Assembly (NCBI RefSeq): GCF_056712565.1 | Contig: NZ_CM160072.1 | Length of the DNA stretch: 64,000 nt | Strand: one strand, 5' to 3' | Shown here: positions 21,640 through 64,000 of the stretch, one piece after another | Numbering within the stretch: the first letter of the stretch is position 1 | Layout: each line of letters opens with the position of its first letter | Notes under the pieces: model-generated | Database searches by the model: none | Seen by the model: the letters and a program-made list of their open reading frames with translations, nothing else | What the model was told of the DNA's origin: nothing | Program-made: the position numbers and the translations under genes

Positions 21640-22083
21640 TTATTGCGTTGGCTGTTGTTTGACGACATTAATCATCCACGGTACGCCAAATTTATCGGTG
21701 ACTTTGCCGAAGCCATGCGCCCAGAAAGTTTCCTGCCAGGCCATTTCGATTTTTCCGTTAGCGGCAAGGTTGTCAAACCAGCGTTTTCCTTCTTCGACCT
21801 GTTGCGAATCGAGCACCAGCGTAAAGCCGGAGTAGCTGGCTTTTCCTGACGGTATAGCATCGCTCATCATGATGTCGCTTCCTGCAATGCGCACGTTGGC
21901 ATGAGCGATGGCGGTATCGGGAAATTGCATTCCGGAAGGGCAGTTTTCGGCGCTGTCCTGCGCTGATTTCGGCATTTCGCCGAAGCTGATTTTATAGAGC
22001 AGTTCCGCGCCCAACGTACGTTGATAATAGGCAATCGCGTCGGAACAGTTACCGGCAAAAGAGAGGTAGGGACTTAACGGCAT
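21640..22083 (-). CDS. yjdN: PhnB-like / glyoxalase-fold protein YjdN
   Basis: 147-aa ORF MPLSPYLSFAGNCSDAIAYYQ... Confidence 0.85.
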   Translation of the reverse strand: MPLSPYLSFAGNCSDAIAYYQRTLGAELLYKISFGEMPKSAQDSAENCPSGMQFPDTAIAHANVRIAGSDIMMSDAIPSGKASYSGFTLVLDSQQVEEGKRWFDNLAANGKIEMAWQETFWAHGFGKVTDKFGVPWMINVVKQQPTQ

Positions 22084-22148
22084 GATGGTGACCTCAGTTA
22101 AGAGAAGCCCGTTAAGTGTAGTTCGAAATTTATACAGATGAGAGGGAA

Positions 22149-22228
<80 letters not shown>

Positions 22229-22242
22229 CGATCACAATACAA

Positions 22243-22578
22243 TCAGTTCTTTTTCACAAACTCAGATTTCAGTTTCATCGGACCAAAACCGTCGATTTTG
22301 CAATCGATGTTATGGTCGCCTTCAACCAGGCGGATGTTTTTCACTTTGGTGCCAATTTTCAGCATCGAAGAGCTACCTTTCACCTTCAGATCTTTAATGA
22401 TGGTCACGCTGTCGCCGTCAGCCAGCAGATTGCCGTTAGCATCTTTAACGATCAGCTCGTCGCTTTCCTGTGCAGGTTCTGCGTCGTTCCATTCGTAGGC
22501 ACATTCCGGGCAGATGTACATGCCGTTATCTTCGTAGGTGTATTCGGAGTTGCATTTTGGGCAGTGTGGTAATGACAT
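22243..22578 (-). CDS. yjdM: PhnA-family zinc-ribbon protein YjdM
   Basis: ORF 22243..22725; start at [30 protein letters not shown] (cat 22576-22578); CxxC...CxxC zinc ribbon. Confidence 0.88.
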
Positions 22579-22980
22579 GTGGATTTCCTCAAAAGTCAGC
22601 AGGGCAAAAGCGCCAAAAAACGGCAGATTGCCGAAAAAGGCCGCAATTATACACAAAATCCCTGAGTTTGTCGGGGGTACTGCTGATTTTAGACGACGAT
22701 CGTTTTCATTTGAAAGGAAACGCAAAAAGAAAATAATCTTTTTGCCTCCATTTATTATTTAAGATAAGGTTAATGCTCTACATGTTCTTTTTTTAATTCA
22801 AATGATATTTTTTATCTTTCTGACGTTTTAAACGTATCGGAAGACGTTATTTATTCTAATAAAAAACAACACTCTAAATATAAAATTATTTCTTGCAGTA
22901 ATTATAAAAGCCGAAAACAGAACTCAAAAACAATCTGGCTAAATAAAAGTAATAAAATTTGCTTTAAGGAAAAATTTTCT

Positions 22981-56149: not shown

Positions 56150-56720
56150 AATAGAAACTCATTCGAAAAGGGAATGATGCAATGATAATTGCCATAACCT
56201 ATTTTTTCCATCTATAGATGGGTTTATTTACATATTATTGGTGAATGTAGGACGTTATTTTTACCCGCCATAAACTTCTTGATTACATAGTATTACGAAA
56301 GGATTTTACTGAGAACCAGAAGTAATTTTCCTTACCATCAAAATTCATCATCTTTGCCAAAGAAAAATGTTCAGAAAATAATCCATGAAAAATTGTCCGG
56401 AGCGCTTACTATTTTAATGGATTGTTAGTCTTTGCATGAGCAAACGGACTGATACATTTCTCTTTGTTCTCATTCAGAAAATCTCATCAGTTGGCGTTCT
56501 GCCCGATGTTGTGCTTTATGGGTGCGTTACGCTCCTGATGACGTCATTTGACGTTCAACAGCATCACGGGGCCGCACGACATTTCACGTCAGTCAGCGCT
56601 ATAGCTCAGAAACAAATTTTCCCGAATTGGGATATGCCCGCAAATTGCTGGTGATGTGGGGAGAATCTGGTTGAGTTCGGTAGAATTGATTTGGCGGCAG
56701 GACGCTTAAATCGTGGCGTC

Positions 56721-56980: not shown

Positions 56981-57544
56981 TTATCCCCACCGGTCCCATC
57001 TCACCAGGTTGTTGATGATAATTTTATTACTAAATTTGCAGGGCGGCCTGGTTTTGTAATCCCGGCTCAGTCCTCTGAAGGCATTGATCTCCCCCCGCTC
57101 AAACAGCTCATCCTTATTCTGGTGCAGTTGTTTAAATGTGCTCAGAATGTTCGCTTCGCTGATTTCCGGAAAATTATCATATTCCAGTGACCTGAACCCT
57201 GTATCACGTGCCTGTGCATCCATTAAGGAAAACATCCCGGAACGCTGCATCAGGTTACGCCAGATTTCGCGCTCAAGATTCCGGGTAATGGCTTTCATTG
57301 CTGTTTCTGGTTTCTCCATCATCCAGCAACCACAGCGAAAATTCTGTTTCATCGCCCAGTCCGGGGCGGCTTTACCGCCAATATTTTCCGTCAGTGCTGA
57401 GATTTCTGTCAGTTGCCGGATAAGCGTGTCGATTTGCAGTAGTGTACTCTTTCGTACAGCCAGGATGTGTCTGATACTTGTGGAACAGATAACGGCTGTA
57501 TGCCCGTTGACCGCGTTCGGGTGGGGGATTGTGATATCTGACAT
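56981..57544 (-). CDS. Hypothetical island-terminal protein (possibly DUF4942-like)
   Basis: 187-aa ORF, last gene before the island boundary; family assignment uncertain. Confidence 0.45.
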   Translation of the reverse strand: MSDITIPHPNAVNGHTAVICSTSIRHILAVRKSTLLQIDTLIRQLTEISALTENIGGKAAPDWAMKQNFRCGCWMMEKPETAMKAITRNLEREIWRNLMQRSGMFSLMDAQARDTGFRSLEYDNFPEISEANILSTFKQLHQNKDELFERGEINAFRGLSRDYKTRPPCKFSNKIIINNLVRWDRWG

Positions 57545-57628
57545 TATGAGGTTTCCTTTCTGTTTATAAACGAAAACGCCAGCCCTGTTCAGGCTGGCGT
57601 CAGGAGAATGGAGTCTGGTGAGTGAGAT

Positions 57629-58051
57629 TCACCGGTTCTGGTGCATAAGTTGCAGTTGGTGCAGGGTACGGATATCCTCCCTGGCCTGTTCAATACAGGG
57701 CAGCAGTGCTGCCGAATCCGTTTTATCCTCATCGTTGTCGAAAATAATTCCGGACCCGCAGTCGATATTGTCCTGCAGCCACGCAATGAGGATATCCAGC
57801 GCTGTTTCAGTGGTTAATGGCATCACGCTCTGTATCACTGTATTGTCTTCCGGCAACTGATGAGGGCTGGCATAAGTTGCCGGTGTTTCGGTAGAGTCAC
57901 GGTCATCCACCACGCGGAGTGAATCACCGTTTTCAGCGGCCTTATTAATCAGTTCAGCGAGATTAACACCATCAATGTCAACGACAATTCGCCCCATATT
58001 CAGTGCCTGTACGTTAACGCTGTCGGCTTCCGGCGTCAGGGAAAGTTTCAT
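57629..58051 (-). CDS. YeeW-like protein
   Basis: 140-aa ORF immediately downstream of, and overlapping by 4 nt, the CbtA-like toxin gene. Confidence 0.6.
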   Translation of the reverse strand: MKLSLTPEADSVNVQALNMGRIVVDIDGVNLAELINKAAENGDSLRVVDDRDSTETPATYASPHQLPEDNTVIQSVMPLTTETALDILIAWLQDNIDCGSGIIFDNDEDKTDSAALLPCIEQAREDIRTLHQLQLMHQNR

Positions 58052-59269: not shown

Positions 59270-59746
59270 TTAAAGCAGACCGTGTTCCGCAAAGGAGAAA
59301 ACCTGGCTGCCACCGACTATCAGATGGTCCGGCACCCGGATATCCACCAGGCCCAGTGCCTGTACCAGACGTTCCGTGATAAGGCGGTCTGCCTTGCTGG
59401 GTGTGACTTCACCGGACGGGTGATTGTGTGCCAGCACCACAGCAGCGGCATTGTGATACAGGGCGCGTTTAATCACTTCCCGGGGATGGACTTCCGTGCG
59501 GTTGATGGTGCCGGTGAAGAGGGTTTCACCGGCAATCAGCTGATTCTGGTTGTTCAGATACAGCACCCGGAACTCTTCCCGCTCCAGTCCCGCCATGTTC
59601 AGAATCAGCCATTCTCGTGCCGCACGGGTGGAGGTGAAGGCCACGCCGGGTTCATGAAGATGGCGGTCCAGGGTTTTCAGGGCCCGTTGAATGAGGCTGC
59701 GCTCACCGGGCGTCATTTCTCCGGGCAGAAAGGAAATCTGTTGCAT
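59270..59746 (-). CDS. RadC-like JAB-domain protein (YeeS/YkfG/YfjY-like)
   Basis: 158-aa ORF with JAMM/MPN motif HNHPSGEVTPSKAD. Confidence 0.8.
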   Translation of the reverse strand: MQQISFLPGEMTPGERSLIQRALKTLDRHLHEPGVAFTSTRAAREWLILNMAGLEREEFRVLYLNNQNQLIAGETLFTGTINRTEVHPREVIKRALYHNAAAVVLAHNHPSGEVTPSKADRLITERLVQALGLVDIRVPDHLIVGGSQVFSFAEHGLL

Positions 59747-59760
59747 TGTTCCGGCCCCTT

Positions 59761-60240
59761 TCAGTCAATGATGCGCATAATGGCGCTGCATTCCGGATGC
59801 TGCAGGGCGTAATCCCGCAGCCGGTAATAATGGACCGTCATGGCATAACATTCCGTACGACAGGCATGATGGCTGTACGTCATCAGACAGGCGGCAATAC
59901 CGGCAGCTTCCGGACTCATTTCAGCGCGGTTACCGTTCATGGCATTGAACAGTACCCATGTTTCGTCATCATCGTCATCCGGTTCAGGTGCCATAAATGC
60001 GCCACCGTTGTTCAGGGTGTACAGATTCCAGATGCCCCCGCAGTAGTCTTCGCACAGACGGTCCATCCAGCCGAAGACACGGGGCTCCAGGGTCACCCAC
60101 TGTGGAATGAGGCCAAAATGCTGCGGCCAGAAGCTGATACGTTGTTCATCAGGGACGGGAGTAGCAACCAGTTGGGGCTGGTTATTCCCTGGTGCTGTGG
60201 CTGAAGAAAGAGCAGTTGTGTTCTGAGAAACGATTTTCAT
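59761..60240 (-). CDS. Antirestriction protein (ArdB/KlcA-like)
   Basis: ORF 59761..60312; start at MKIVSQNTT (cat 60238-60240); ISFWPQHFGLIPQWVTLEP...GGIWNLYTLNNGGAFMAPE. Confidence 0.75.
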   Translation of the reverse strand: MKIVSQNTTALSSATAPGNNQPQLVATPVPDEQRISFWPQHFGLIPQWVTLEPRVFGWMDRLCEDYCGGIWNLYTLNNGGAFMAPEPDDDDDETWVLFNAMNGNRAEMSPEAAGIAACLMTYSHHACRTECYAMTVHYYRLRDYALQHPECSAIMRIID

Positions 60241-60505
60241 GAGTGAAATCCTTACAATGTGTATAAATGAGAGGAAATAAAGGCCGGGGGCTGACAACAT
60301 CACGTTCATCACTGACCGTGAGACCCGGCAATATCAGGGATGAATGATATTCGGCTGAAATTCCGGACAGCCGTACGCGTAACCGTTCCGGTCACAGACG
60401 GATGGCCAGAAGATGCCATTGCCTGTACTCAGTCTGCACAGACTGAGTTCTCCGGGGCGTCGGGTGATTCTGGTGCCTGAATCACGCCTTCAGGGACAGA
60501 TTGCA

Positions 60506-61324
60506 TCAGCGCAGGCTCTCCAGTAGCGTTTCTGCCATCACCCACAATGCGCGATTGAGCTTAATGCCGGTGTCGATGCTGTGAATGGCACGGGTGTGGA
60601 TACGTTTTCCTCTGGCACTGCGACCGGAAATTCCGCCTTTTAGCATATTCTCCTGGATGGTCTGATAAGTACTCCACAGGTCCTTACCGTAATCCTCCCG
60701 GCGTCGTGGCGTCAGAATGTCGGCGGTGGTGACGGGCTGATGTTCGTCACCATAACGGTAAGTCAGTGCCGCCTGTGCCAGCGCCTGGCGTGTCGGTGGC
60801 GGCAGGACCAGCGACTGCATGGCATCACGCTTCTCCTCTATCCGGTCAAACACGCCCACCACCTCGTAAGCCCCTTCAATAACTTTCTCCACCACATTTC
60901 CCCGGTGTGGAACACGCAATTCTCCCAGAGACTGACCGCAGACCAGTCCATTGGTACAAATGGCACGAAAATATCCGGGTAACATCTGGTAGCTGGATGA
61001 ACCGTCATGGGAGTTGAGCAGAATAATTTCAGGCACATGCTGACCGGTTATCTGTCCGGCCCGCCGCAGACGCAGCATATGTTTGGTATATTCCCGGCGG
61101 CTCTGGTCGCGCACACGGGTCTGGCAGGCGAAGAACGGCTGAAAGCCTTCCCGCTGCAGATTTTCCAGGACGGTGATGGTGGGAATGTACGCATACCGTT
61201 CACTGCGGGAGGTGTGCCGGTCTTCTCCAAAAATACTCGGGACGTGGTACATCAGTTCTTCGCGTGTCAGTGGGCGCTCCCGACGGATCTGATTTACATG
61301 ACCAAAACGACTGGCTAATTGCAT
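60506..61324 (-). CDS. DUF932-family protein (YfjQ/YafZ-like)
   Basis: 272-aa ORF; length and position typical of CP4-type islands. Confidence 0.65.
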   Translation of the reverse strand: MQLASRFGHVNQIRRERPLTREELMYHVPSIFGEDRHTSRSERYAYIPTITVLENLQREGFQPFFACQTRVRDQSRREYTKHMLRLRRAGQITGQHVPEIILLNSHDGSSSYQMLPGYFRAICTNGLVCGQSLGELRVPHRGNVVEKVIEGAYEVVGVFDRIEEKRDAMQSLVLPPPTRQALAQAALTYRYGDEHQPVTTADILTPRRREDYGKDLWSTYQTIQENMLKGGISGRSARGKRIHTRAIHSIDTGIKLNRALWVMAETLLESLR

Positions 61325-61413
61325 ACTTTGCTCCTTATGAATGAATTAGCGGTATAAACGAAAAGGCCGCGTCTCCCGGAGAAGACGCGGCCTGATGGAT
61401 GAAATGAAGACGT

Positions 61414-61647
61414 TTATTGCCTGAGAATTCCCTCACTGGCGAGATACGAATTTAGCTGTTTTCCGGCATCAGGTTCAAAATTCCAGCACCGCCAGCGTAG
61501 CTGCCCTTCGGCATTGCGGATAACCAGCCGGAAATGCGTTCCCTGGTCATCTTCAATAAGCACATTGCGGTAAGCTGTTGTGATGACAACCGCCTGTTCG
61601 CGTGAGAAAGGGCCTTCGGGCAATAAAACAGGGCGACAGTCCAACAT
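61414..61647 (-). CDS. DUF905-like small protein
   Basis: 77-aa [62 protein letters not shown]... Confidence 0.55.
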
Positions 61648-61652
61648 ACCGG

Positions 61653-62330
61653 CTATTTTCCGATAAATTCAACGCTGGCGCCGGTGGCATTACCGTCAGC
61701 ACCAACCGTGACGGTCACTTTGTCGTACGCACGGTCTTCAGGATTGAATACTTCAAACTCAACCTTATTGCCTTTTACTTCGTAAGAGCCAAAATCAGCG
61801 GTTTCTGTTGTTTCCTCGTCGTATTTCCGGGCGTATGCCTGTCGGGCAGCCTGCAGTACGGAGTCTTTATTAATAGTGGTCGTCTGTTTCGGGGAAAAAA
61901 CGGCAAGTGATGTGACAAATTTCGGACAGACCTTCAGCATATCACCGCGGGTGAATTCCATTCGTACACCAAATGCCTGTAAAACGGACACATCACGCTC
62001 TGCTATGGAGTGAACGGCTTTTTTGACCATTTCCGACGCCTGTTCGGCTTCCACCTCAACAGCCCTGAATCCCGTCTGCTGATTACACATTTGTGATGTG
62101 GGGATCAGGTTACCGTTAATACTGATACGGCTGCCCAGGAGCGTCTGTACGCCATTCGGGCATCCCTGCATCAGGCCGGTAATACCAATCGTGCCATTTT
62201 TCAGCATTACCAGCGCCTGACCATCTTCCGTCATGGTCTGGCACCAGCCGTTTTTGACAGCCCAGTTACCGGCGGAGGCGGAGAAGGATGCAACAGTGAA
62301 AAGCAGGGGAAAAAGAGTTCTGGTATTCAT
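61653..62330 (-). CDS. Putative secreted/periplasmic protein of unknown function
   Basis: ORF 61653..62438; start at [20 protein letters not shown] (cat 62328-62330), a signal peptide. Confidence 0.55.
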
Positions 62331-62480
62331 GACTGACCTCTGAAATGAACGTACGGTGTTATTGATAATGATGGAAGGTATGCAGTGACTGTTCAGGAAA
62401 TGACGTAATAGCCATATATTTAGTTTTCTGTTCAACATATTGTCTCCATACCTGTCGGGACGGCTTTGGCAGGCCGGCGA

Positions 62481-63161
62481 TCACAGGTTAAAGGTGTTGA
62501 TAAGTTTATGGATGAAAGAGAAATGTGGCAGGGCGGAGATAAAACGCTCTTCAGCGACCAGATTGTGGATGTGGCCTCTCCGTTCAAACCGTTCTGATGT
62601 CAGGCTGACTGATTTGATATCTGCCAGGGGAAAGACCTGCAGTTTTCCCTTCTGTAACGCGATCAGATACCAGCTTCCGCTGTAATAAATGAGCCGGCAG
62701 GGCTCCAGTGACGTATACCATCGCTCAGTCATCAGCGAGATGTGGATACACTGTTTTATTGCCAGGATGAGTTGCGAGAAACACTCGGGGAACGTTGCAG
62801 TGATATCCGGCGCCGGTAGCCAGATAAGGCAGGGAGAGGGCTCCTGGTTGTCGGTAAGACAGGTTATCAGTCGTCCGTTCCGGAGCGGAAGTATCCGTGC
62901 GATCCCGGTATTCTGTATAAAAGAAAGCATTTCAGGGATCGCACACGGGCTGCTCTGTCGTCTGAGGCTGTACCTGCCATTTCTGTACTCTAAATCCAGG
63001 TGAACCAGACGCTGATGAAAATCGCGCTGTAAAGTACGTTCTGTAACGCCAAATTCATCTGACAGTGTCTTTAGTGACAGAGATTCTCCGGCCATCAGTC
63101 GGCTGATAATGAGTGATAAGCGAACCGCCAGACGATCATGCCGGGAACGATCATCAGACAT
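62481..63161 (-). CDS. HTH + WYL-domain transcriptional regulator (YfjR-like)
   Basis: 226-aa ORF; N-terminal HTH and WYL signature IYYSGSWYLIA. Confidence 0.7.
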   Translation of the reverse strand: MSDDRSRHDRLAVRLSLIISRLMAGESLSLKTLSDEFGVTERTLQRDFHQRLVHLDLEYRNGRYSLRRQSSPCAIPEMLSFIQNTGIARILPLRNGRLITCLTDNQEPSPCLIWLPAPDITATFPECFSQLILAIKQCIHISLMTERWYTSLEPCRLIYYSGSWYLIALQKGKLQVFPLADIKSVSLTSERFERRGHIHNLVAEERFISALPHFSFIHKLINTFNL

Positions 63162-63363
63162 AGATGTGTACTCCGTAAGAAAACATCTTTTATTTCATGA
63201 TGTTATTATGCCTCATGGTGTTGAAAGGATGTGTCGTATCTGAATAATCAGGAATAAAATGCAGCAGAAAAAATATTCCTTTAATTATCTGATTTTTAAT
63301 GATGATTTCATAAAAAGAAGAATACTCGTTAATCCAGCGACACATCCTGTCGGCGTGAGTGTG

Positions 63364-64000
63364 TCAGAACAGACGATCCCACAGTGTTTCCAGCAGGCGG
63401 ATAATGCGGTCCCGGGCTTTACGCAGAAGCTGTAACATCCAGACCGGAAAAGTGAACCGGGCAACGGCGTCGTCAAAACTTTTCCCGATGGCGTCACCAA
63501 AAGTCTGTTGTGCGTGTTTCTGGGCCTGTTCAGAGCGGTTTTCCCCCCGGATATGTGAATAAACCGCACTGGTTGCCTGCGGTGGCAGGGCGTGGATCAT
63601 CAGCGACACAAACGCCGGAAGATTCCAGCCGACAGGCGCAGCAACGGGGAGTACCGGAAATGATGACGGGAACAGGGTTGCCACCCTGGCTGTAACAGTT
63701 GCCAGTGAGAGTTCCTGGTGACGGGATGGGCATTTTTCTGTGGCATTCCATTCTTCAGCAGGAAACACGCGATCGGCATGGCTGAGAACAAACAGAAAAC
63801 GCGAGGGATCTGCACCTTCATTCAGTAAAAACTGATGCATGGCAATATCGGCAGCATACGCACGTTCATCAGCCCGCAGGATCCAGATAATCAGATCCAG
63901 TTCCGGCAGTAACTGACGGTAAATCTCCCGGTATTCCTGATCATGCTGCGGTGTCTCACCAATGCCGGGCAGATCGACCAGCGTCATTCTGCGTTCACCA
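63364..64000 (-). CDS. YeeP/YkfA/YfjP-like GTPase, C-terminal part; 5' end lies beyond the window
   Basis: Minus-strand frame open to the window edge; contains DLPG (G3-like) motif, but the N-terminal P-loop would lie upstream. Confidence 0.6.
   Translation of the reverse strand, partial: GERRMTLVDLPGIGETPQHDQEYREIYRQLLPELDLIIWILRADERAYAADIAMHQFLLNEGADPSRFLFVLSHADRVFPAEEWNATEKCPSRHQELSLATVTARVATLFPSSFPVLPVAAPVGWNLPAFVSLMIHALPPQATSAVYSHIRGENRSEQAQKHAQQTFGDAIGKSFDDAVARFTFPVWMLQLLRKARDRIIRLLETLWDRLF

Follow-up and report, generated by a model that had tools for sequence, protein, structure and literature searches.

What is the role of four consecutive minus-strand genes at the end of a 64,000-nucleotide (nt) stretch of contig NZ_CM160072.1 (assembly GCF_056712565.1; the whole stretch is hereafter called the window)? 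Located between positions 61,414 and 64,000, they encode a GTPase, a transcription factor with a WYL domain, a protein with a signal peptide and a DUF905 protein. The initial annotation, made from the DNA letters alone, treated them as a poorly characterised cluster that might harbour undescribed biology, possibly tied to phage defence. Our analysis points to another answer. We consider it probable that the region belongs to the conserved backbone of an integrative island of the CP4-57 type, located at cadC/pheU, and forms its regulatory and cargo section, and that a local, self-regulating transcription factor drives expression of the WYL gene, the exported-protein gene and DUF905 up to a terminator. 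The family identities, the synteny, two sequence boxes and their restriction to regions upstream of WYL genes, the covariation, the spacing and the terminator described below were all computed here.

The central evidence lies between the GTPase gene and the WYL gene. A repeat search returned 14-nt inverted arms at 63338-63351 and 63223-63236, each of which is part of a 15-bp near-palindrome with the consensus sGACAyAnCCTGTCs (boxes 1 and 2, Table 1). Box 1 begins 11 nt past the stop codon of the GTPase gene, and box 2 lies 116 bp downstream of box 1. With the window as reference, we compared 80 loci that carry homologues of the WYL gene. These were drawn from a one-genome-per-species collection, in which some genomes contributed two loci, and were annotated against the window proteins. 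They come almost throughout from Enterobacterales, and the boxes had no part in their retrieval. Both boxes were present in all 78 upstream regions that were long enough, box 1 at -177 to -204 and box 2 at -65 to -81 relative to the WYL start codon. Box 1 matched at least 11 of the 15 consensus positions in 77 of 78 loci, as opposed to 6 of 390 shuffled sequences. Both boxes also precede yfjR of E. coli K-12 and the K-12 remnant ykfK.

The boxes are largely confined to this position. A weight matrix made from the box 1 sites was scanned over 1.37 Mb and found 113 sites, 103 of which fall within -260 to -30 of a WYL gene. In the window, boxes 1 and 2 are the sole sites above 12 bits. A one-mismatch match to the box core, GACACATCCTGGC, occurs on the minus strand at 57459-57471 within a DUF4942 remnant; it probably arose by chance because its weight-matrix score is below 10 bits. 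The spacings between the two boxes cluster at 110-112, 116-118 and 121-123 bp, and helical phasing or DNA looping between them was discarded as an explanation because they do not keep a constant phase. A search of open-access text found no publication on the boxes.

The WYL protein itself seems to recognise the boxes. The identity of residue X in the recognition-helix motif RTL[X]RD changes together with the outermost base of the half-sites: arginine is paired with G in 214 of 224 half-sites, glutamine with C in 64 of 80 (13 of the others have T), and tyrosine with T in all four cases. Two loci, L041 and L062, carry boxes of the glutamine/C type within an otherwise arginine/G-type sequence background. 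We infer that the WYL protein binds both boxes. The boxes, an 11-nt spacing described below and the covariation are kept across dozens of genera amid diverging intergenic surroundings, which argues for purifying selection.

The position of box 2 suggests how such binding could act on transcription. A hexamer of the form xAxxxT lies exactly 11 nt 3' of box 2 in 72 of the 73 loci scored, with examples such as CATAAT, TAAAGT, TACACT, TAAAAT and TAGAAT, and the same 11-nt pattern was seen by eye in five further loci where the scan had taken the wrong strand. The 11-nt spacers comprise 43 distinct sequences with a mean identity of 49%. Other distances vary, from 108 to 123 nt between the boxes and from 33 to 49 nt between the -10 hexamer and the ATG. 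Given the hexamer and its spacing, box 2 would cover approximately positions -38 to -24 of a promoter without a -35 element. A spacer that is fixed in length and variable in sequence is expected of a factor that contacts RNA polymerase, and invariant spacing without a -35 element favours an activator that replaces this element, as PafBC and DriD do. The geometry thus weakly suggests that the WYL protein activates its own promoter; alternatively, it may be a repressor that occludes the promoter, as CapW and BrxR do (PMC11662680). A sigma-70 consensus match between the boxes (63311..63284) was considered as the promoter and rejected. It is unconserved in relatives and the match count equals the shuffle expectation, and it was replaced by the hexamer at fixed spacing.

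The WYL protein is a member of the YfjR family, with 43% identity to K-12 YfjR over 226 amino acids (aa; E = 6e-54). YfjR is listed as a prophage-encoded transcription factor with the yfjR operon as its target (Table 2 of PMC8249747). Pfam matches to HTH_11 (residues 14-48, E = 1.2e-4) and to WYL (E = 8e-5) are both weak. The SWYL motif occupies residues 163-166, and W164, Y165 and L166 are invariant in 25 homologues. The AlphaFold model has a mean predicted local distance difference test score (pLDDT) of 75 and is confident in the helix-turn-helix (HTH) and WYL parts. It contains helices at residues 2-23, 30-37 and 41-51, a hairpin at 57-66, and beta-strands between 139 and 191 that build the WYL barrel. 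Structure prediction and remote homology searches, which the initial annotation had proposed as a check, place the protein nearest in fold to PafBC, CapW, BrxR and DriD. These are the best Foldseek matches in the PDB (E = 6e-7 to 1e-4), the whole chain aligns with CapW, BrxR and DriD, and the WYL profile matches the WYL domains of PafBC with E = 8e-8.

The repressors CapW and BrxR and the activators PafBC and DriD have the N-terminal HTH, helical linker and WYL beta-barrel in common with the window protein. They also have a palindromic operator at the regulator's own promoter, for which the boxes are the candidate in the window, and the -26 motif of PafBC replaces the -35 element as the proximal box would (PMC11804915). 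Sequence similarity to the four is marginal, and the window protein, with 226 aa, is shorter than these regulators (266-330 aa). They carry a C-terminal WCX domain of about 100 residues, which spans residues 193-297 in Rl CapW (PMC11662680), whereas the window protein has only three short helices (196-225). It ends about 30 residues past the WYL barrel and therefore has no WCX domain. A profile alignment sets RTFRLSRI of PafBC opposite LQVFPLADI of the window protein, which puts Pro and Asp at the positions of PafB R211 and R214, two residues essential for binding single-stranded DNA (ssDNA) (PMC11804915). The SWYLI motif likewise does not have the flanking arginines of RWHVR in CapW (PMC11662680). 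With the ssDNA-binding arginines of PafBC and CapW apparently absent, the ligand of the WYL domain is probably not ssDNA bound in the canonical manner. The window also differs from the surroundings of the four known regulators in that PADLOC detects no adjacent defence or DNA-repair system.

Directly 3' of the regulator is the gene for a 225-aa protein with a standard Sec signal and an ASA cleavage motif, as read from its sequence. The family has four invariant cysteines and is confined to Enterobacteriaceae. The protein has no match in Pfam, NCBIfam, PHROGs, PADLOC or PDB sequences. Remote-homology and structure searches, also part of the initial proposal, could be run on a model with a mean pLDDT of 76.5 and returned generic fold matches only. 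Just 1 of 60 loci has a homologue of this gene behind the WYL gene, as the site is an exchangeable cargo slot. The stretch from the WYL gene to the following backbone gene contains one to five small open reading frames (ORFs), and about a dozen sequence families are represented among them. Remote homology among these families was sought by profile-profile comparison (hhalign) and dismissed, as only signal-peptide similarity was found; the 225-aa protein was also considered as a homologue of K-12 YfjT and shows no homology. Among slot ORFs of at least 95 aa, 137 of 182 have signal-peptide-like N-termini, compared to about 6% in cytoplasmic backbone families. The same slot in K-12 holds the lipoproteins YfjS and YafY and the exported protein YfjT. 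The region 3' of the regulator thus appears to be a hot spot for exported cargo proteins.

The DUF905 protein closes the set. Its Pfam match spans model positions 2-68 of 70, and it matches the structure of YkfF (PDB 2hjj) with E = 6.9e-28. The start codon lies 5 nt past the stop codon of the exported-protein gene, and the DUF905 gene is followed by a strong terminator-like hairpin, with arms that are perfect over 11 nt in the repeat search, ahead of the DUF932 gene. Because of this close spacing and the terminator, DUF905 is probably co-transcribed with the cargo gene. No terminator was found between the WYL gene and the cargo gene, and we infer that the WYL, cargo and DUF905 genes are co-transcribed. 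A weak Rfam match to c4-a1b1 at 62437-62480 (E = 0.46; 18.6 bits, where the gathering score is 46.7) was taken as chance.

Table 1. Features of the four-gene region and of the backbone genes that follow it (window coordinates).
Feature	Position	Strand	Remarks
GTPase gene, YeeP/YkfA/YfjP family	63364..64000, runs past window end	minus	Pfam MMR_HSR1 E = 5.9e-15
Box 1, distal operator candidate, CGACAGGATGTGTCG	63338..63352	minus	position weight matrix, 20.6 bits
Box 2, proximal operator candidate, CGACACATCCTTTCA	63222..63236	minus	position weight matrix, 17.3 bits
Putative -10 hexamer CATAAT	63205..63210	minus	11 nt past box 2, 43 nt before ATG
YfjR-family HTH-WYL transcription factor gene, 226 aa	62481..63161	minus	Pfam, AlphaFold, Foldseek, profile alignment
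Exported-protein gene, 225 aa, cargo slot	61653..62330	minus	Sec signal peptide encoded 62271-62330
DUF905 (YkfF-like) gene, 77 aa	61414..61647	minus	Pfam PF06006 E = 6e-31
Intrinsic terminator-like hairpin	61364..61393	minus	13-bp stem, 9 G-C pairs, then T-run
DUF932 gene	60506-61324		between DUF905 and antirestriction gene
Antirestriction gene (ArdB/KlcA-type)	59761-60240		downstream of four-gene set
RadC gene	59270-59746		downstream of four-gene set

Taken together, these features suggest the following scheme. A dimer of the YfjR-family protein would recognise the 15-bp near-palindromic box via its N-terminal HTH. It would find the high-scoring box 1 just past the end of the GTPase gene and box 2 at the -35 position, 11 nt before the -10 hexamer. 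From this promoter, the WYL protein would control its own operon, consisting of the WYL gene, an exchangeable exported cargo and, in this strain, DUF905, and the operon would close at the intrinsic terminator.

DUF905 also connects the island to plasmids. The family occurs in at least 5000 plasmids, 85% of which are conjugative. In the leading region of an IncF plasmid, DUF905 is found between ssb and psiB with a DUF932 gene and an antirestriction gene nearby, as in the island. Its immediate surroundings differ: the plasmid genes stand behind ssb and ahead of parB-like and psiB genes, whereas the window gene stands behind the exported cargo gene and is followed by the terminator. The IncF plasmid p3204 (L083, 12044-24244) carries in this region genes for antirestriction, DUF1380, DUF3560, a methyltransferase, ssb, DUF905, a parB-like protein, psiB, hok and DUF932. 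As it shares three gene families with the backbone, the block from DUF905 to RadC in the island may be a leading-region-like early-entry module.

The four genes are part of a larger, conserved gene order. We found a collinear, same-strand backbone composed of GTPase, (DUF932), WYL, cargo, (DUF905), DUF932, antirestriction, RadC, DUF987, CbeA, CbtA, DUF5983 and DUF4942, where parentheses mark the genes that are not always present at that position. The order is exact in the window and in the annotation of E. coli S88, and it recurs in most of the 80 loci and in the CP4-57 and CP4-6 elements of K-12. Of the 71 loci whose sequence extends far enough, 54 have the GTPase gene immediately before the WYL gene on the same strand, and seven more have it immediately behind. 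In 49 of 60 loci, RadC, CbeA, CbtA or an antirestriction gene lies 3' of the WYL gene. Of 5426 complete E. coli genomes, 4315 match a 2.7-kb query at least in part and 1591 cover at least 80% of it.

Conserved co-occurrence, whose absence was to have counted against the initial annotation, is therefore found for the backbone: the GTPase gene accompanies the regulator, and so does the block of RadC, toxin-antitoxin and antirestriction genes. The same data change the picture of a special uncharacterised cluster, as the block has long been known, is spread over these thousands of genomes and has K-12 paralogues in CP4-57 and CP4-6. Nor do the four genes form one dedicated system, given that the 225-aa gene is a rare occupant of its slot and DUF905 is a leading-region gene of plasmids. 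The cluster is a widespread, long-annotated backbone of which the window carries a further allele, and no special locus. The WYL family has no match among 50,697 phage records, on which ground a phage origin was rejected, and it is rare on plasmids (59 records).

In K-12, CP4-57 has the order yfjP, yfjQ, yfjR, ypjK, yfjS, yfjT ... yfjX (lfgA), yfjY (lfgB), ypjJ, yfjZ, ypjF, and CP4-6 has the order ykfA, yafZ, ykfK, ykfL, yafY, ykfB, ykfF, yafX, ykfG and further genes. The paralogues of the window genes are yfjP and ykfA (GTPase), yfjR (WYL) and ykfF (DUF905). The pseudogene ykfK (L084, 5777-5968 and 6031-6154) is what remains of another yfjR copy, namely its initial 64 codons; it is 100% identical to the YfjR N-terminus and retains both upstream boxes. 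YfjR itself is equal in size to the window protein, with the stated identity holding over the full length, and occupies the same backbone position. The yfjR unit (yfjR-ypjK-yfjS-yfjT) resembles that of the window in its boxes, at about -186 and -75, and in the exported or lipoprotein cargo directly 3' of the regulator. The two units differ in several respects. K-12 has a DUF932 gene between the GTPase and the regulator, its cargo families are unrelated to the 225-aa protein, and its box 1 is inverted relative to the window. Furthermore, the recognition-helix residue is glutamine with C-type boxes in the window and arginine with G-type boxes in K-12. A third element, CP4-44 (yeeP-isrC-flu), shares the backbone and encodes the surface protein antigen 43 (Ag43) directly 3' of the GTPase gene and before RadC and CbeA/CbtA, but has no WYL gene. 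An isrC-like RNA was not detected in the window by Rfam.

The GTPase gene enters the window with its 3' two-thirds (residues ~84-294), and the P-loop lies outside. We read the full gene from the S88 locus (L001), which supplied the parts of the island beyond the window end. There, it encodes 294 aa (22065-22949) with the P-loop GKSGTGKSS. Over its full length, the protein is 35% identical to K-12 YfjP and 33% identical to YkfA, and its sequence matches the solved G domains of Der and Era. The YeeP, YkfA and YfjP GTPases of CP4 elements likewise join an Era/Der-like G domain to a conserved helical region at the C-terminus and share the position at the start of the backbone; the window protein is a divergent allele of this group. 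In seven loci (L008, L009, L011, L012, L015, L016 and L024) the order is reversed, with the WYL gene first and the GTPase gene -6 to +85 nt behind it, so the GTPase would fall inside the box-controlled operon. This clade includes Photorhabdus, Xenorhabdus, Citrobacter, Pantoea and others. Adjacency in either order is a hint of a functional link, and suggests that the GTPase may work together with the WYL protein. A Pectobacterium brasiliense locus (L039) contains two WYL paralogues (6755-7717 and 9902-10735), one of which is divergent from the GTPase gene and has its own box scoring 19 bits.

Approximately 100 nt past the window end, S88 encodes a 407-aa protein divergent from the GTPase gene (L001, 23050-24273). 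Two loci without the GTPase, L007 and L017, have a homologue immediately before the WYL gene in divergent orientation. The 407-aa protein was considered as a defence candidate and dropped because it has no match in Pfam, NCBIfam, PHROGs or PADLOC.

Window positions 56.2-64 kb are 100% identical to E. coli S88, APEC O1, ATCC 11775 and many further strains, and in S88 the corresponding stretch is the cadC-proximal end of a large island. All four ORFs were confirmed as intact, and RefSeq calls the four genes identically in identical DNA; on their sequence matches to known families, they are genes rather than chance ORFs. Their identities agree with those given at the outset, and the remark that none of the four proteins has an established function holds. 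They share one strand and lie upstream of the antirestriction and RadC genes, as described initially, with the previously unmentioned DUF932 gene in between. Beyond RadC, the order continues with DUF987, CbeA/CbtA, DUF5983 and a truncated DUF4942. A 46-aa ORF on the plus strand (60340-60480), which RefSeq lists as a hypothetical protein, occupies the interval between the antirestriction and DUF932 genes in the opposite orientation. The cadC-side end of the island is decayed (56409-56568 and 56981-58051), and in identical DNA RefSeq lists an integrase fragment, the truncated DUF4942 and a truncated DUF5983 as pseudogenes. A search for tRNA genes across the window returned none. Outside the window, the S88 island (L001, 30939-42701) carries genes of a grp glycyl-radical propanediol microcompartment that are interrupted by reverse-transcriptase fragments.

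Several other explanations were weighed against a self-regulated operon. The suggested link to phage defence would require a BrxR/CapW-type repressor that senses phage- or damage-derived ssDNA and de-represses a new defence system made up of the GTPase, the secreted protein and/or DUF905. The fold of the WYL protein is in line with this, and generic WYL models in PADLOC match it. The GTPase has weak, partial PADLOC matches to LeoBC (2.4e-7) and LeoA, and in K-12 CP4-57 the defence genes abpAB and rnlAB are located just upstream of yfjP. However, the regulator lacks the WCX domain and apparently the ssDNA-contacting arginines, and PADLOC finds no defence system, with no model matching the secreted protein, DUF905, DUF932 or the 407-aa neighbour. 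The genes 3' of the regulator are interchangeable small exported proteins, DUF905 comes from plasmid leading regions, and the boxes are confined to the regulator's own promoter. We therefore regard a new defence system as improbable, and the proposed link is not borne out, although envelope cargo could in principle mediate exclusion. A second possibility, which we entertain tentatively, is that exported cargo under WYL control acts at the envelope on behalf of the island, in surface or entry exclusion, phage-receptor block, adhesion or biofilm formation, like Ag43. The strong enrichment of signal-peptide, lipoprotein and membrane proteins in the slot, its K-12 occupants YfjS, YafY and YfjT, and the position of flu right behind yeeP in CP4-44 are consistent with this. 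According to a report cited in PMC9308461, loss of yfjR lowered biofilm formation by 65%, a phenotype that was later not confirmed (PMC9308461 and PMC8464067). We further speculate, with equal reserve, that YfjR-type proteins are a distinct WYL branch without the WCX domain and ssDNA arginines. In enterobacteria they could act as -35-replacing activators in a manner akin to class II sigma adaptation, sense something other than canonical ssDNA and turn on an exchangeable envelope cassette with which the islands achieve exclusion, anti-phage masking or adhesion, the GTPase being a functional partner.

Rather than operators, the boxes might be the two sides of a stem formed by RNA or ssDNA, or they might be terminal inverted repeats that bound a small mobile element. 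The window arms are 14 nt long, 93% complementary and 101 nt apart, the region folds better than shuffled sequence by a modest margin (z = -3.6 as RNA and -3.3 as DNA), and relatives in other genera keep the complementarity with different arm sequences. Yet in 52 of 78 loci the two boxes point the same way, which makes a long stem impossible there, and the apparent pairing arises because each box is itself near-palindromic. The outer base covaries with a residue of the recognition helix, Rfam has no match for the box region, and neither the window nor the loci contain further copies, which argues against a miniature inverted-repeat transposable element. We dropped this explanation as highly improbable, given the direct orientation in most loci and the restriction to regions upstream of WYL genes. 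It also seems unlikely that the genes are inert remnants of a decayed element that are neighbours by descent only. In this strain, neighbouring backbone genes and the integrase are pseudogenes, and K-12 CP4-6 has lost most of its yfjR copy. The absence of detected YfjR binding in K-12 (discussed below) would also fit. Against this, all four ORFs are intact, the 2.7-kb block persists in the 1591 genomes noted above, and dozens of genera have kept the boxes, the fixed 11-nt spacer length and the protein-DNA covariation.

The self-regulated operon, which we favour, also has points against it. In ChIP-exo (chromatin immunoprecipitation with exonuclease digestion) on tagged K-12 YfjR, zero binding sites were detected (PMC8464067), and the strain and growth condition may have been ones in which YfjR is inactive. 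The unit might be functionally inert in the present strain because its neighbours DUF4942, DUF5983 and the integrase are pseudogenes, and the 150-nt gap between the WYL and cargo genes could hold an independent promoter. The covariation counts loci, which are related and hence do not represent independent evolutionary events, and the pattern used for locus retrieval, in one of its two peptides, allowed only arginine or glutamine at the covarying residue. Finally, the signal-peptide test is a crude hydrophobicity heuristic that falsely flags the N-terminal helix of the WYL protein.

The finding is real yet ordinary in kind, and current understanding is not overturned. The backbone itself is already known, and the new part is the conserved pair of boxes before the WYL regulator's own small operon. 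In some form, this backbone is present in about four fifths of complete E. coli genomes and in many other Enterobacterales, and its proteins are without a defined role. The candidate operator sequence, the predicted specificity-determining residue and the rigid promoter geometry are new and make YfjR-type regulators directly testable. The operator model offers a testable explanation for the empty K-12 ChIP-exo result, and the cargo hot spot 3' of the regulator is a reasonable place in which to seek island-encoded envelope functions.

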